From a virus (Duplodnaviria > Caudoviricetes), in the IMG/VR virus record IMGVR_UViG_3300006893_000274, positions 1-41,461 of that record: a DNA stretch of 41,461 bases. The stretch is one strand, 5' to 3'. Numbering within the stretch: the first letter of the stretch is position 1; the number at the start of each line of letters is the position of its first letter. The notes below the pieces were generated by a model that worked only from the letters and a program-made list of their open reading frames with translations, searched no databases and was not told the DNA's origin. Made by a program: the position numbers and the translations under genes. Shown piece after piece: positions 20,845 to 32,897 of the stretch.

Positions 20845-20861
20845 ACACGCCCCCTTTAAAG

Positions 20862-20940
20862 CCCTTCGAGCCGGAATCGAACCGACGTGACCGCCGCTTG
20901 CTGAAGGCGGCGGCATCCTAGGCCGCTAGATGACCGAAGG
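20862..20940 (-). tRNA. tRNA-like RNA on a tRNA-Glu-type scaffold with an enlarged anticodon arm; no encoded CCA
   Basis: CCTTCGG/TCGAAGG acceptor stem, D arm ATC-TAGCGGCCTAG-GAT, T arm GTCGG-TTCGATT-CCGGC; anticodon arm CCGCCGC-CTTCAGCAA-GCGGCGG. Confidence 0.75.
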
Positions 20941-25306: not shown

Positions 25307-25672
25307 CTAGCGGGGTGAACCGGCCGTCCGCCACGCGTCCACCACGGTCCCAGGAATGCGGCCACGATCGTTGAACGCGGGCAGTTCGTACTTCGCCCGG
25401 TTCTCCTCGACGCCCCAGAACGCACGCTGCGCCAGAACGTCCGTGCGGCTGGTGACGATCGGAGCCGCCTTACGGCCGCCCTTGCCAGCCTTAGCCGCCT
25501 CCACAACCGTTGCATGCTGGATGAACTCAGCGAGAGCCTTACGCAGCTTCGCCGCGTTCTTCTCCCCCAGGTCAATCGTGTAGTCCACTCCATCGACCGA
25601 GAATTCCACGGTGTCCGCGCCCTCCGAACCGTCGATGTCGTCGCGGACGATGGTCACGAATTCCTTAGCCAT
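25307..25672 (-). CDS. lsr2: Lsr2-family nucleoid-associated protein
   Basis: DDIDGSEGADTVEFSVDGVDYTIDL...NAAKLRKALAEFI dimerisation domain and RGRIP AT-hook motif. Confidence 0.92.
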   Translation of the reverse strand: MAKEFVTIVRDDIDGSEGADTVEFSVDGVDYTIDLGEKNAAKLRKALAEFIQHATVVEAAKAGKGGRKAAPIVTSRTDVLAQRAFWGVEENRAKYELPAFNDRGRIPGTVVDAWRTAGSPR

Positions 25673-25776
25673 GACGGCCACTCCCCTAACAGGCTTATCG
25701 ATACGGGCTAACGAGGCCAGTTAAGCAGAACGGCGGATCGGTTAGCAACCGATCCGCCTAACGCGCCCGCTAAGGG

Positions 25777-27823: not shown

Positions 27824-28102
27824 ATGCGCCTAAAGTTCATCGGCATCGATCCGCCTACCGGCACGGAGGGCTCTCCTACGGTGTGGGTCGATGAAGACGC
27901 GGCCGAACTCGTCATTCAGGGCTGGCGCCCGGAAGGCGAGCTGCACGACGCGGTAGAGGCCTGGGAAGTCCCCGGGCACGCCGTAGGCATCCCTGCGCAC
28001 GAGGCTGTAATTAGGATTCCGGCACGAATGGTGTCGATGGTGAGGGAGGCTTGCGATGTCGCAGAGGCGGCAGAGCTTCGCGGAACGGCTGGCAACAGCT
28101 GA
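27824..28102 (+). CDS. Conserved small protein that accompanies DUF6879/XRE modules
   Basis: LKFIGIDP.TG...SPTVWVDE...ELVIQGW...IPAHEAVIRIPARM; AGGAGG RBS. Confidence 0.75.
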   Translation: MRLKFIGIDPPTGTEGSPTVWVDEDAAELVIQGWRPEGELHDAVEAWEVPGHAVGIPAHEAVIRIPARMVSMVREACDVAEAAELRGTAGNS

Positions 28103-28577
28103 ACGATGGGCGCTCCACTTGGAGCTACGCGACTCGTACGGGGTCGAGAACGAGGCCGATGCGTTCGCCGCGTTCCGGCGCGGCGAGTGGACCGAAGCGC
28201 TTGAACTGGAAGACCGGCAAGAGTGGGTCGAACTGATCGGGGCGGCGAACTCTCGGGGTGTCGAGGTCAGACGCGCCCGCATCGTCTCCATGCCCGTGAC
28301 GGAGTACATCCGCTATGAGCACGCCGGTACGCAACTCAACGTCGATGCTGGCGAACAAGTCCGCTGGCTTGAGCGACGGCAGGCGTCCGACCTGCGGCTC
28401 CCGGGTAATGACTTCTGGCTCTTTGACGAGACATTGATTCAGTTCAACGTCTTCGACGGACCCGGCAACTGGGCGCACACTGATTTCAGTGAGGACGCGA
28501 ACGTGATCGCGTTCTGCCTCGCCGCGTTCGAAGAGGTCTGGGCGCGTGCCGTGCCGCACGCCGAGTTCAAGATCTAG
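28056..28577 (+). CDS. DUF6879-family protein
   Basis: HLELRDSY, RRARIVSMPVTEYIRYE, GEQVRWL, LPGNDFWLFD and FEEVWARAVPH motifs. Confidence 0.85.
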   Translation: MSQRRQSFAERLATAERWALHLELRDSYGVENEADAFAAFRRGEWTEALELEDRQEWVELIGAANSRGVEVRRARIVSMPVTEYIRYEHAGTQLNVDAGEQVRWLERRQASDLRLPGNDFWLFDETLIQFNVFDGPGNWAHTDFSEDANVIAFCLAAFEEVWARAVPHAEFKI

Positions 28578-28589
28578 CGCAACCTGCAC

Positions 28590-29438
28590 ATGCCGACTTC
28601 CCCACTCTCGTCCGCCCAAGAGGCGCGCCGCAGGGTCGCCCGTGACCTTGAGTCAGTCCGGCTTGATGCCGGACTCAACAAGCGGGAACTTGCGGCGCGC
28701 TGCGGCTGGCACGAATCGAAGTCGAGCCGGATCGAGGGCGCCCGCACCGCGCCATCAGACGATGATATTCGCGTTTGGTGCCGTGCGTGCGGCGTCCCCG
28801 ATCGCGCCGCTGACATCATCGCGGCGAACCGCTCCGCGGGCTCTATGTACGTGCAATGGCGGAAGCGCCACGGCAGCGGAATGCGCCAGGCGCAAGAGGG
28901 CGCGCTACCGCGCTACGAGAGCACGTCAGCTTTCCGCATCTACTGCTCTAACGTCATGCCTGGCGTACTCCAGACGCCGGGCTACGCAACCGAGCTCATG
29001 AGCCTGATCACGGAGTTTCAGGGCACACCGAACGATGTCGAGACGGCCGTGCAAGCGCGCATGGAGCGCAGCAAGGCACTCCATCAGGCAGGCCACACGT
29101 TCGCCATCCTGCTAGAGCAGAGCGTCCTGTACTACCAGCCTGGCAAGCCCGAAACCATGGCTGGCCAACTCGGATGGCTGCTAGAAGCGATGTCGCTTCC
29201 CGCCGTGGCCCTCGGCGTAGTCCCCTGGTCAGCGAAGCGCGCCGTATGGCCACTCGAAGCGTTCTACGTGTTCGATGATCGCCTAGTCGTGACCGAGACG
29301 CTGACGGCAGAGATCAACGTGCAGCAGCCGGGCGAGATCAGCGACTACCTACGCGCATTCACCGAGCTGTCCAAAGCGGCCGTGTACGGCGCTTCCGCGC
29401 GCGCGCTGGTCACTGCGGCCATCAACTCCATCGGGTAG
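28590..29438 (+). CDS. XRE-family HTH regulator with DUF5753 domain
   Basis: N-terminal HTH (ELAARCGWHESKSSRIE); PGVLQTPGYA, R.ER, GQL..L and Y...F..L...A motifs. Confidence 0.9.
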   Translation: MPTSPLSSAQEARRRVARDLESVRLDAGLNKRELAARCGWHESKSSRIEGARTAPSDDDIRVWCRACGVPDRAADIIAANRSAGSMYVQWRKRHGSGMRQAQEGALPRYESTSAFRIYCSNVMPGVLQTPGYATELMSLITEFQGTPNDVETAVQARMERSKALHQAGHTFAILLEQSVLYYQPGKPETMAGQLGWLLEAMSLPAVALGVVPWSAKRAVWPLEAFYVFDDRLVVTETLTAEINVQQPGEISDYLRAFTELSKAAVYGASARALVTAAINSIG

Positions 29439-29535
29439 TTCCGTGCAAGTTCGTGCACGCGCATGGCCGTAGCGGTGCACCGGTTCTTACGCTGCTTTTC
29501 AGTGTCAGCATGCAAGGCAGCCTCAGGGGTGACCG

Positions 29536-29769
29536 ATGGCCGTTCAGACGTTCGATTCTCGCCAACCCGTAGCACTTACCGACCCGAGCGAGATCAAGCC
29601 GGGTGACTGGCTTGAAGACCTCGCGACATTGCGTCAGGTCGAGTCAGTGGACTCGATCGGAACGCTTCATGTCGTGCACTTCCTCTACCAAGACGGCATC
29701 CCGACTCTCGCGCGCGGCATTGCGAGCGGGACGGCGCTCACGGTGTGGAGGGACCTGCCCAGTGGCTGA
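29536..29769 (+). CDS. Hypothetical protein
   Basis: AGGGG RBS; SH3-like IKPGDWL...VESV pattern. Confidence 0.55.
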   Translation: MAVQTFDSRQPVALTDPSEIKPGDWLEDLATLRQVESVDSIGTLHVVHFLYQDGIPTLARGIASGTALTVWRDLPSG

Positions 29770-29961
29770 AGCGCTATTACGCGGGCGCCGTGATACCCCG
29801 ACTCGCCTGGGATGACCTCGGGGACGACCTGGCCCACTACGTCCGTGACCCAAGATTCCGTCTGCCATGGCGTCCCGTTCCCCTGTGGCCCACTGAGGTG
29901 AAGCGCATCCAGGAAGTCCTGAAGCTACTCGACCGACGCCCCCGACCCTGGGAGTCAGCAC

Positions 29962-30231
29962 GTGTTCAGCCTGATTGTGGAGATCAACGACTACCAGGTT
30001 GCTGGGTTCCCCTGTGCCGAACTTCCCGACGTCCGTGCACGCATTGAGCGGACGCTACGCGACCGGGGGCGAATGCCCGCTAAGGACGACTTCGATCGGC
30101 TCATGGAGGCCATGACGCGGACGCTTGAAAGCGCTTCGCGCTGGCAGTACGAAGCCCGCCGCGTCTCCATCATCGTGCGCCGGTATGAGCGGACCGCCGG
30201 CATAAGGTCTACCCCATCTGACCAGCACTAA
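29962..30231 (+). CDS. Hypothetical protein
   Basis: GGGAG RBS with GTG start. Confidence 0.55.
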   Translation: MFSLIVEINDYQVAGFPCAELPDVRARIERTLRDRGRMPAKDDFDRLMEAMTRTLESASRWQYEARRVSIIVRRYERTAGIRSTPSDQH

Positions 30232-30359
30232 CGCATTGGAGAACACCCGCGATGCGGGCAGGTTCACGATGCGCCCAAGCGCCCCCGACCCGTCGCGCCC
30301 GCACGCCTGGCGGGTTGGGGGGATTCCAACCCAACTCACGAAGCAGAAGGACACGGGCA

Positions 30360-30551
30360 ATGACGAATGAGAGGCCGCAGAGACCGGTGTCCACGGAGAC
30401 GAAGCAGCTGATCGCGGCGAACTTGGATGCGGACGCCGAATGGGCCGACTCGCACGGCTACCCGGAGGGTGCGGAGAACCTCAGGGGGCAGGCCACCAGG
30501 CATCGCGAAAGGAACGGCCTGCCAGCGAACGGGCAGCAACAGACCACCTGA
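30360..30551 (+). CDS. Hypothetical protein (63 aa)
   Basis: ATG after GAAGGA, within track ORF 30252..30551. Confidence 0.55.
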   Translation: MTNERPQRPVSTETKQLIAANLDADAEWADSHGYPEGAENLRGQATRHRERNGLPANGQQQTT

Positions 30552-30635
30552 CAGCACGCAAAGCGTCCCCGCCGGACAGTTGACCGCTTCCCCACCGCTG
30601 TCCGGCGGGGGCATCCACCACGAAGGAGAGAGACA

Positions 30636-31736
30636 GTGGACTCTCAGCTCATAGCTAGCCCGTTCCCGGACGGCTACGTCATCGTCCGGCCCGGCCGTGA
30701 CGGCGGAGTGCGTATCGGCTCCGCCCTCTACGCCGAGCTGCGCGACGCGCCCGCGGATGCCGCTGTCCCGGGGTGGCTTGCCGAAGCCGCAAGCAAGGGC
30801 CTCGGCGTGGACGTGGCGGGAAGCACGGTCGGCGACGCCGTCATGGTGCGCCCGGATACTCCGTACGGCTACGCCCGTGCGAGCTACGAACTCAACCTCG
30901 GGTGTAACTTCGATTGCGATCACTGCTACCTCGGGGAAAAGCGGTTCGATGGCCTGGAGTGGCCCGACCGCGAACGCCTCTTGCACACCTTCGCGGAATC
31001 GGGCGTTCTGTGGCTTCAGCTCACGGGCGGGGAACCCCTGATCGATTCGCTGTTCGAGGAGACGCACACCTACGCGTGGGGCCTCGGCATGATGATTCAG
31101 ATCTCTTCCAACGGATCGACGCTCTACCGGCCGAAGACGCTTGCCGTTCTGACGCGGTATCCGCCCTACCGCGTTACCCTCAGCATCTACGGCGGGACCG
31201 AAGCGTCATACGACGCCATGACCCGGCGCCGGGGTGCCTTCAAGAACTTCATGCGCGGCCTGGCCGCCGCCCACGAAGCCGGGCTCAATCTCCGGCTCAA
31301 CGTCATAGTGTCGCGGCACAACTCCCATGAGATCCCGCTCATGCATGAAATCGCCGAACGGTACGGCGCGTCCGCGCACGACTATCACCAGATCTCTCCC
31401 ACGATCCATGGCGGCGCAGAAGTTCTGCCGAGCCAGGCGAACGAGGTCAAGCGCGACAGGACGCACTACACCGGATGCAACGCGGGCATCACCCACTACC
31501 ACGCCGACCCGCACGGCCAAGCGTCCATCTGCAAGATCGGCCGACAGAACCAAATCGACCTGATCACGGAAGGGACGGCCGGGCTGTCCCGTCTCGCCGA
31601 GTTCGCCGCTGTCCAGAACACGCGGCATGGTGGTTGCGCGGGGTGCGGGCTTCAGAAGACGTGCAGCACCTGTATGCCGCTGGTGACCCTCTACCGGCAG
31701 GCAAAGGCGCCGCTCGAAAGGTACTGCCAACACTAG
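30636..31736 (+). CDS. Radical SAM/SPASM enzyme, probable RiPP maturase with N-terminal RRE-like domain
   Basis: CNFDCDHC (CX3CX2C), LTGGEP, SNG; C-terminal CX12GX4C...CX2CX5CX2CX17C seven-Cys SPASM-type motif; about 75-aa N-terminal extension. Confidence 0.92.
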   Translation: MDSQLIASPFPDGYVIVRPGRDGGVRIGSALYAELRDAPADAAVPGWLAEAASKGLGVDVAGSTVGDAVMVRPDTPYGYARASYELNLGCNFDCDHCYLGEKRFDGLEWPDRERLLHTFAESGVLWLQLTGGEPLIDSLFEETHTYAWGLGMMIQISSNGSTLYRPKTLAVLTRYPPYRVTLSIYGGTEASYDAMTRRRGAFKNFMRGLAAAHEAGLNLRLNVIVSRHNSHEIPLMHEIAERYGASAHDYHQISPTIHGGAEVLPSQANEVKRDRTHYTGCNAGITHYHADPHGQASICKIGRQNQIDLITEGTAGLSRLAEFAAVQNTRHGGCAGCGLQKTCSTCMPLVTLYRQAKAPLERYCQH

Positions 31737-31752
31737 AGAAAGTGAGGAACGC

Positions 31753-31941
31753 ATGGCCGCAGTCGCCGTAGCCCTGCTGACGCGCCCGCCTTCGGACCTG
31801 GCCGAGCTCCCTGGGTACCTGGTGCCCGAGAGCACGCTTGAGGAGATCAGCGCGGACGCGTTCGAGATCGTCACCGACACCGATAAGCTCCTGACGGCGT
31901 GCTCGTGCACGGCCAGCAGTGACCAGGTGTACAACAACTAG
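31753..31941 (+). CDS. Putative RiPP precursor peptide (62 aa)
   Basis: GAGGA RBS; starts 16 nt after the rSAM stop; acidic leader-like N-terminus and Cys/Ser/Thr-rich C-terminus TACSCTASSDQVYNN; followed by a stem-loop. Confidence 0.75.
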   Translation: MAAVAVALLTRPPSDLAELPGYLVPESTLEEISADAFEIVTDTDKLLTACSCTASSDQVYNN

Positions 31942-31948
31942 GCCAGCC

Positions 31949-31982
31949 GCCCAGGGGGCCGGGGCAACCCGGTCCCCTGGGC
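31949..31982 (+). promoter_or_regulatory. Stem-loop after the precursor gene
   Basis: GCCCAGGGGGCCGGG-GCAA-CCCGGTCCCCTGGGC with no U-tract. Confidence 0.65.
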
Positions 31983-32000
31983 TCGTCACAGGGGAACGCT

Positions 32001-32837
32001 GTGCAGCGCATTTCATGGGACGACGTGCCCGCTGAACTCGCCGAACTGATCGAGTCGCGTACCGGGCCGATCCTTGGCACATACACGGCCGCGTCCGGCC
32101 ACAACTCGCCGGTTGCCGCAACCGTGGTGACGGCCGAAGGAAAGACGTTCGTTAAGGGCTTGCCCAACGACAACCACGGCGTCAAGGGCCAGTTGAGGGA
32201 AATCGCGGTGGCGCCGCTCGTCGCCCACATCTCTCCGTGCCTGCGATGGCACTTCGACGCGGCCGGATGGACCGTCCTCGGTTACGAGCACATCGACGGG
32301 CGGCACGCCGACTACAGTCCGAACTCGCCGGACCCGGATGCCCTCCTGCCGGTGATCGAAGCACTCGGGCAGATCGAGGTAACAAAGCCAAGTCCGCTGT
32401 TCAAGCGTGCCGAAGACCGCTGGAAGACGTACGTCGAAGATGCAAGCGAGCTAGAAGCGTTCCGCGGATCTACCCTGCAACACACTGATTGGATCCCCCA
32501 GAATGTTCTAATCGCTCAGGGACGCGCTTACCTGGTCGATTGGGCGTGGCCGACCCTCGGTGCGGCATGGATGGACCCCGCCTATATGGTCATCCGACTG
32601 ATGGCATCCGGGCACAAGATCGGCGACGCTGAGGCATTCGCGGGCCGGATCCCCGCGTACGCCGATGCTGATCCGACGCACCTCGATTCGTTCGCCGCCG
32701 CCAACCTGCGGATGTGGGAAGAGATCGAGCGGCAAGCCATAGGCCACACAACAACGCCGTGGATGCGCTCCGTCGCCCTCGCCGCGCAGGAGTGGGCCGA
32801 GCATCGCCGGAACAGGACGCGGGTCTTCGCCCTCTAG
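32001..32837 (+). CDS. APH/choline-kinase-like phosphotransferase
   Basis: FVKG ATP-binding lysine, catalytic HTDWIPQN (HxDxxxxN) and LVDWA metal-binding motif. Confidence 0.88.
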   Translation: MQRISWDDVPAELAELIESRTGPILGTYTAASGHNSPVAATVVTAEGKTFVKGLPNDNHGVKGQLREIAVAPLVAHISPCLRWHFDAAGWTVLGYEHIDGRHADYSPNSPDPDALLPVIEALGQIEVTKPSPLFKRAEDRWKTYVEDASELEAFRGSTLQHTDWIPQNVLIAQGRAYLVDWAWPTLGAAWMDPAYMVIRLMASGHKIGDAEAFAGRIPAYADADPTHLDSFAAANLRMWEEIERQAIGHTTTPWMRSVALAAQEWAEHRRNRTRVFAL

Positions 32838-32897
32838 CACCCGCACCCGATTACGCTCCGCTCACGCCGGCCTGCACTCAGCGTGAGCGGACGGCAA

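Follow-up and report, generated by a model that had tools for sequence, protein, structure and literature searches.

A three-gene unit on the plus strand of the viral contig IMGVR_UViG_3300006893_000274 (positions 30636 to 32837 of the 41,461 nucleotides analysed, hereafter the window) encodes a radical S-adenosylmethionine (radical SAM) maturase, a short precursor peptide, and a kinase of the APH/choline-kinase fold. We propose, with a probability of roughly 0.42, that this cassette produces a small intracellular RiPP (a peptide made by the ribosome and modified after its translation), in which the radical SAM enzyme would cross-link Cys and the kinase would phosphorylate a conserved Tyr, probably for self-protection. 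In the proposed mechanism, an Xre module would turn the operon on, the RRE-like domain of the maturase would bind the acidic leader, and the radical SAM centre would abstract a hydrogen from a core residue and link that residue to the sulfur of Cys50 or Cys52, in the manner of sactipeptides or ranthipeptides. The product would remain in the cell and inhibit a target of the host or of an incoming phage, and O-phosphorylation of Tyr60 would disarm it. In related lineages, acylation by a GNAT protein would have taken over the disarming, freeing Tyr to become Phe, His, or Asn.

Homologous loci were collected from 80 of 275 genome hits, 12 viral contigs, two annotated phage records, 80 of 116 GNAT-selected metagenome hits, and taxon samples. 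Rows L176-182 and L183-212 (short duplicates, for which longer fetches were used), L110 (a spurious peptide match), and L318 were dropped. The peptide gene (31753..31941, plus strand; third-position GC 0.89) encodes 62 residues, with the acidic leader-like part described in the original prediction, a reading made from the letters of this DNA, and the core C50-S-C52-T-A-S-S-D57-Q-V-Y60-N-N. Among the homologous maturase loci with at least 300 nt of downstream sequence, 230 of 232 carried a related peptide, and the two misses looked disrupted. The peptide open reading frame (ORF) is therefore not a chance one, and the conserved adjacent peptide that had been proposed as a neighbourhood check of maturase homologues was recovered. 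The peptide is very probably the substrate of the maturase.

Two core forms were distinguished. The first, C-x-C-x-x-x-D-D-[NQ]-P-X, comprised 170 unique peptides, all with both Cys, which define the form; in the window the Cys-Ser-Cys codons, encoding the predicted thioether donors, lie at 31900..31908 (plus strand). The second has a single Cys, mostly in G-C-[GN]-D-D-N-P-Y, and comprised 42 unique peptides plus one irregular; in 42/43 non-CxC peptides one Cys lay six residues ahead of the terminal position. Cys was present inside the last 11 core residues of all 213 unique peptides and was the only residue found in every core; it formed part of the peptide search pattern, yet only 2 of the 232 loci yielded no peptide. 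Asp at position -3 (207/213, thus with six exceptions) and Pro at -1 (209/213) were nearly as constant. The terminal position was Phe, His, or Asn in 73/170 CxC peptides and non-Tyr in 74/213 overall, being the non-aromatic Asn in 12/213, and residues extended beyond it in 43/213; 164/170 CxC peptides stopped at the aromatic position. With Cys as the one constant residue, a terminal position open to non-aromatic residues, and exceptions at Asp -3, a thioether to the core Cys sulfur is favoured as the probable product. A rule joining residue i to i+4 would place the acceptor on Asp or Asn in most relatives, but on Ala54 and Ser56 in the window. Of the two cross-link sites suggested by the original prediction, the C-S-C cysteines thus stand as the likely donors, and the terminal Y-N-N does not. 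A triceptide site at Y-N-N was rejected: the V-Y-N-N ending of the window is a local variant, none of the 170 related CxC peptides having the N-N tail, and 73 of these carry Phe, His, or Asn in place of the Tyr.

The maturase (366 residues; 30636..31736, plus strand) consists of an RRE-like N-terminal domain (about residues 1-75), a radical SAM core, and a seven-Cys SPASM-type C-terminus. Both Cys motifs noted at the outset were present, and the CX3CX2C cysteines (C90/94/97) and the C-terminal cysteines 281, 299, 334, 337, 343, 346, and 364 were invariant in a 35-sequence alignment. The C-terminal spacing was kept in 174/179 family members (seven Cys in 166, eight in 8). Invariant H289 and D291 may be non-Cys ligands to the auxiliary cluster, in a region where the predicted model is weak. 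Seven auxiliary Cys would leave one iron open, as described for sacti- and ranthisynthases (PMC8326336). The maturase matched Pfam Radical_SAM (E 2.7e-14). The Pfam SPASM model gave no match at E<=0.1, so that the SPASM label is based on the arrangement of the cysteines and on the similarity of fold, in a region where the predicted local distance difference test (pLDDT) score of the model is low. The overall pLDDT was 78, with the Cys-rich tail weak, and the N-terminus was modelled as three strands followed by three helices. The best fold match was SkfB (Z 23.5 by VIA-align; model 4-349, root-mean-square deviation 4.8, 311 aligned), followed by SuiB (Z 22.0; model 4-366, root-mean-square deviation 5.1, 309 aligned), both including the RRE region; viperin gave Z 20.9. 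Pfam gave no PqqD match in the N-terminus, and the RRE likeness rests on the whole-model alignment; an Atlas cluster with 11% PqqD members (score 0.88) was a lead only. With the named maturase hidden Markov models (HMMs: SkfB, AlbA, StsB, MftC, PqqE), the protein scored far under every curated cut-off (MftC, 67.8 bits vs 265; SkfB, 36 vs 300; StsB, 52 vs 625), as it did with NCBIfam viperin (40 vs 180). No curated family cut-off was reached by the kinase or the peptide, and only that of the generic Radical_SAM by the maturase; no NCBIfam model names the cassette genes.

The kinase (278 residues; 32001..32837, plus strand) has the intact catalytic motifs first reported for it, K52, E67, H161-x-D163-x4-N168, and D180 being invariant in 25 sequences. 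Its predicted model (pLDDT 95.5) matched the choline kinase LicA, APH(2''), and homoserine kinase at E values of about 1e-8 and 11-18% identity. Related kinases also lay directly 3' of a radical SAM protein with a fused, acidic C-terminal tail of Cys-Pro repeats (L345, L348, L350-L356), an enzyme that may carry its own substrate.

Presence of the kinase followed the identity of a single peptide residue. Counting unique peptides other than that of the window (13 were unscorable for want of downstream DNA), a kinase was found within 2.5 kb downstream of 130/135 peptides with Tyr at the terminal position, versus 0/65 with Phe, His, or Asn. A protein of roughly 290 residues with a C-terminal GNAT domain followed 64 of these 65 non-Tyr peptides; at the exception, a GNAT lay 2.4 kb downstream. 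GNAT also accompanied 20 Tyr peptides, 17 of which kept the kinase, compared to 0/64 GNAT-bearing non-Tyr peptides. The four states (kinase only; kinase and GNAT; GNAT with Tyr; GNAT without Tyr) could represent a staged replacement. Close relatives differed in both traits together (L167 vs L134; L315/L280 vs L316). Raw Fisher p-values were set aside, as they ignore relatedness, and trees were built from rows whose proteins were of sufficient length (184 for radical SAM, 83 for GNAT). The reconstruction placed each of its 3 Tyr losses on the 8/266 kinase-less branches (rough concentrated-changes p about 2e-5, dependent on the reconstruction). No residue of the GNAT-linked cores clearly covaried with GNAT, and D-N-P was invariant in 83/83. 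In 40/42 single-Cys cores with a kinase there was no Ser or Thr from the residue before Cys to the end; the window's own core does contain them. Because the kinase tracks Tyr and these cores lack Ser/Thr, the kinase likely acts on the peptide Tyr (Tyr60, codon 31930..31932, plus strand), and Ser/Thr, the target implied by the original prediction's analogy to LanK, was abandoned. Three genomes, G059, G168, and G228, each carried both cassette types, Tyr with kinase and non-Tyr with GNAT. Among graspimiditide precursors, a subset of group 13 (L370-L380, L332) carried a C-terminal D-P-Y extension resembling the ending of the cassette peptide.

Gene loss was asymmetric. In the same 301 Streptomyces genomes, 1/60 maturase loci lacked both kinase and GNAT, while 15/56 high-scoring kinases (E <= 4e-88) were without a full maturase (p 7e-5); three of these 15 kept the peptide and one kept a radical SAM fragment only. 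Across all samples, 2/164 radical SAM-selected loci lacked both partners and 16/61 GNAT-selected loci lacked the radical SAM gene. The orphan kinases nested among cassette kinases on the tree. Loss of the toxin first is the usual pattern in toxin-antidote pairs, and the APH and GNAT folds are classic self-resistance enzymes. The asymmetry resembles that of an antidote, and we lean slightly towards a kinase that protects rather than decorates. Because the conserved set has no transporter or protease, an intracellular product disarmed by Tyr phosphorylation was favoured; action inside the cell is plausible from the gene content. Only tentatively would we go further, to a toxin-antidote module in which the radical SAM enzyme arms an intracellular thioether peptide for addiction or superinfection defence and its disarming falls to the APH-fold tyrosine kinase or to a GNAT that can replace the kinase. 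Anti-phage action would be an analogy to the lanthiphages compared below. Among the PADLOC 2023 defence models, the kinase, GNAT, and DUF6879 had no match, and the maturase had only weak, partial pVip matches (E 2e-12, barrel core only). At L324 and L326, GNAT and kinase lay side by side with no radical SAM gene or peptide within 1.5 kb upstream.

Several observations weigh against a disarmed intracellular product with a phosphorylated Tyr. Absence of the kinase was scored locally and not genome-wide; some genomes with non-Tyr loci carry kinase relatives elsewhere (e.g. G074, G067, G120, G059), at L040 a fragment of a kinase lies about 4 kb upstream, and five Tyr loci have no kinase. Changes at Tyr were few (5 on the radical SAM tree and 6 on the GNAT tree by parsimony), and the 4-5 supported independent pairs, none in the opposite direction, were not significant by sign test (p 0.25). 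The kinase clade of the window is sister (support 76) to kinases beside the different radical SAM enzyme, in which the fused Cys-rich tail is without a conserved Tyr, and other related kinases follow a protein of roughly 150-180 residues ending in a conserved CSQCHANC motif (L357-L360, L362, L365, L366); given such Cys-rich partners, specificity for Tyr does not extend to the wider family of kinases. The D-P-Y graspimiditides were rejected as a second class in support of the Tyr link, as a kinase was present in only 1/12 loci. That locus, L332, also holds a radical SAM fragment, so its cassette is probably a remnant; the 11 other D-P-Y loci and 29 motif-less loci had no kinase. Lys, moreover, occurred in the last 16 residues of only 39/83 GNAT-linked cores, the orphan kinases may be decaying remnants, only 11/20 of them passing a strict motif check, and the lanthiphages, the nearest functional analogue, are reported to be non-toxic to the host (10.1101/2024.06.26.600839).

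A strong rival, although we hold it to be somewhat improbable, accepts the same RiPP but makes the kinase a tailoring enzyme, with phospho-Tyr part of the active product and acylation by GNAT an alternative decoration. The covariation of Tyr and kinase fits it equally, and tailoring of RiPPs through acylation by GNAT proteins is described for goadsporin (GodH), albusnodin, and the selidamides (PMC10373908); however, it leaves unexplained why kinases and GNATs are kept where the maturase is missing, when a maturase with neither partner is so rare, and peptides with that same conserved core keep Phe, His, or Asn variants. The kinase might instead act on a small molecule or a protein, its link to Tyr reflecting binding or shared ancestry. 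Its fold neighbours are small-molecule kinases, it stands alone in many genomes and also beside unrelated Cys-rich partners, and the independent-pair test was not significant, but we regard this as quite unlikely given zero exceptions in 65 non-Tyr peptides from several lineages and close sister pairs in which both traits change.

Other readings concern the maturase. It is unlikely, though worth weighing, that it performs different chemistry, for example by forming a C-C or C-O bond at the D-x-P-aromatic end, by epimerising, or by decarboxylating Tyr in the manner of MftC, with the Cys binding metal or forming a disulfide. SuiB, a C-C cyclase, nearly equals SkfB as a fold match, Asp -3 and Pro -1 are nearly invariant, and the mycofactocin maturase model reaches 67.8 bits. 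Against these stand the Asn-ending peptides and the 43 that extend beyond the terminal position, the large deficit of every named maturase model, and the Cys, whose number and position shift between the two forms without Cys ever being lost. Decarboxylation of the mycofactocin type was rejected, since Tyr is replaceable (74/213 non-Tyr) and the MftC score is far below its cut-off. Finally, a viperin-like radical SAM enzyme might make an antiviral nucleotide with the kinase, the small ORF being an accessory and the system not a RiPP. The weak pVip matches and the viperin Z score point that way, but the matches are limited to the shared barrel, the maturase has additional RRE-like and seven-Cys domains, NCBIfam viperin falls well short of its cut-off, and the peptide is almost universal; we give this reading very little credence.

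The window is a near-complete temperate actinophage, with terminase, portal, capsid, tape measure, endolysin, and replication genes all on the minus strand. A tyrosine integrase truncated by the contig end (1..1152, minus strand) agrees with the lysogen setting assumed earlier. The minus strand also carries a tRNA-Leu(CAG) gene (20861-20940) and an ORF without an NCBIfam match (25307-25681) that we take to resemble Lsr2. The three co-oriented ORFs were found as first described, each preceded by a purine run resembling a ribosome-binding site; the unit belongs to a larger plus-strand island (27824-32837) ordered small ORF, DUF6879, Xre-DUF5753 regulator, orphan ORFs, radical SAM gene, peptide, and kinase. 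The island's small conserved ORF (27824..28102), DUF6879 gene (28056..28577; Pfam E 2.4e-54), and regulator (28590..29438; Xre-type helix-turn-helix (HTH) and DUF5753 by Pfam) are all on the plus strand. This trio was found upstream in 13/149 loci, and DUF6879 alongside Xre-DUF5753 in 14/149. An Xre-type regulator lay within 3.5 kb upstream in 125/149 loci, counted with HMMs made from the same loci and without a background control; the Xre-DUF5753 regulator is likely part of the cassette module. Three to four short plus-strand ORFs in the gap between regulator and maturase (29536..30551) are of uncertain membership, with no Pfam match for the three tested and no relatives in the fetched loci. 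Neither a sigma-70-like promoter nor a terminator was found above chance, and the island showed no boundary repeats.

Across the family, only Xre-type regulators and HATPase recurred widely. As the original prediction had it for the unit itself, no transporter, peptidase, or lyase was found among the recurrent neighbours (64 of 96 cluster representatives scanned). Mobile-element genes lay near the cassette in 22/56 Streptomyces loci and 15/52 other genome loci, as detected with narrow home-made profiles. A different protein of 295 residues, with kinase-like motifs (H-x-D-x4-N, then D) and no Pfam match, lay directly upstream of the radical SAM gene at L008:4133-5020 and 13 other loci. Another protein, of 159 residues and also without a Pfam match, recurred in L087:10167-10646 and about 10 other loci, usually just 3' of the kinase.

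The radical SAM gene was found in 57/301 sampled Streptomyces genomes and in 14/201 genomes of the family of Winogradskya humida, and a threshold of E<=0.001 gave 1195 related protein clusters, of which many are close. Among named relatives, the one in Actinocrinis puniceicyclus came nearest to the unit (radical SAM protein 81% identical; DNA 75% identical over about 30616-32871). Most copies are in bacterial genome assemblies and only some in phages, so the emphasis first placed on phages was not sustained; a single-protein scan of viral contigs gave no further locus. The same unit occurs in Streptomyces phage Success (gp3-gp2-gp1, NC_073472) and in phiDSM40276 (NZ_CP114204), with radical SAM identities of 44% and 51%; unlike the CxC peptide of the window, both peptides are of the single-Cys GCG form. 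Automatic annotation in both reads oxidoreductase or radical SAM, hypothetical, and kinase or aminoglycoside phosphotransferase, with no function assigned. In two genomes the cassette directly adjoined a graspimiditide ATP-grasp gene (G178:C78, 4877-9209; G254:C2, 4789231-4792970).

The cassette is common in soil actinobacteria, yet no name or description of it was found in full-text searches made mostly outside subscription journals, the motif DNPY included. Published atlases of radical SAM RiPPs may list the family. In line with the original prediction, the product could be matched to no named RiPP class. The covariation gives a prediction at the level of a residue, namely an APH-fold kinase acting on a peptide Tyr, for which no RiPP description was found. 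The exchange of kinase and GNAT, together with the orphan kinases, suggests that many actinobacterial 'aminoglycoside phosphotransferase' genes may be peptide-immunity genes. If the toxin-antidote module proposed above is real, it would put a natural product of the ribosome under a phosphotyrosine switch, and it would be found in temperate phages and in roughly one of every five Streptomyces genomes. Since the cassette is carried by Success, a phage in culture on S. lividans, a role in the phage life cycle is directly testable.

By its sequence features, the cassette would work like a sactipeptide or ranthipeptide cluster but falls outside every named family. With SkfB, CteB, freyrasin/PapB, NxxcB, and StsB it shares a radical SAM core and an adjoining Cys precursor, along with a putative RRE and a putative Cys-ligated auxiliary domain, whereas it differs in its 18% identity to SkfB, its core motif, its kinase or GNAT partner, and its lack of a transporter or protease. 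Mycofactocin (MftA/MftC) is likewise an actinobacterial radical SAM-SPASM system with an acidic peptide substrate, MftA carrying Val-Tyr near its end; in the cassette, by contrast, other residues can stand in for Tyr, which is often not terminal, the MftC model falls far below cut-off, and no Mft accessory genes are among the recurrent neighbours. In Actinomycetota, class V lanthipeptides, thioamitides, and kintamdin also have a RiPP precursor with a neighbouring APH-fold kinase, the class V kinase-lyase pair being LanK-LanY. For kintamdin, the corresponding kinase-lyase pair is described as KinD/KinC (PMC10373908). The cassette has no lyase or cyclase in the 64 scanned recurrent neighbour families; its ring formation would be radical, and many of its cores have no Ser/Thr, the kinase tracking Tyr. 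The lanthiphages, anti-phage class I lanthipeptides, are described as coming from similarly minimal actinobacterial RiPP clusters that are often located on prophages or plasmids and mostly have no transporter, and as acting intracellularly, but they use LanB/LanC chemistry, and their main text does not mention radical SAM or phosphotransferase (10.1101/2024.06.26.600839). The same regulatory module (HTH-DUF5753, DUF397, HATPase) is reported at the minimal actinobacterial clusters of graspimiditides and cysimiditides (PMC8939145, PMC13097080, 10.1101/2024.10.02.616296); those clusters use ATP-grasp and PIMT enzymes, whereas the cassette uses a radical SAM enzyme and a kinase.

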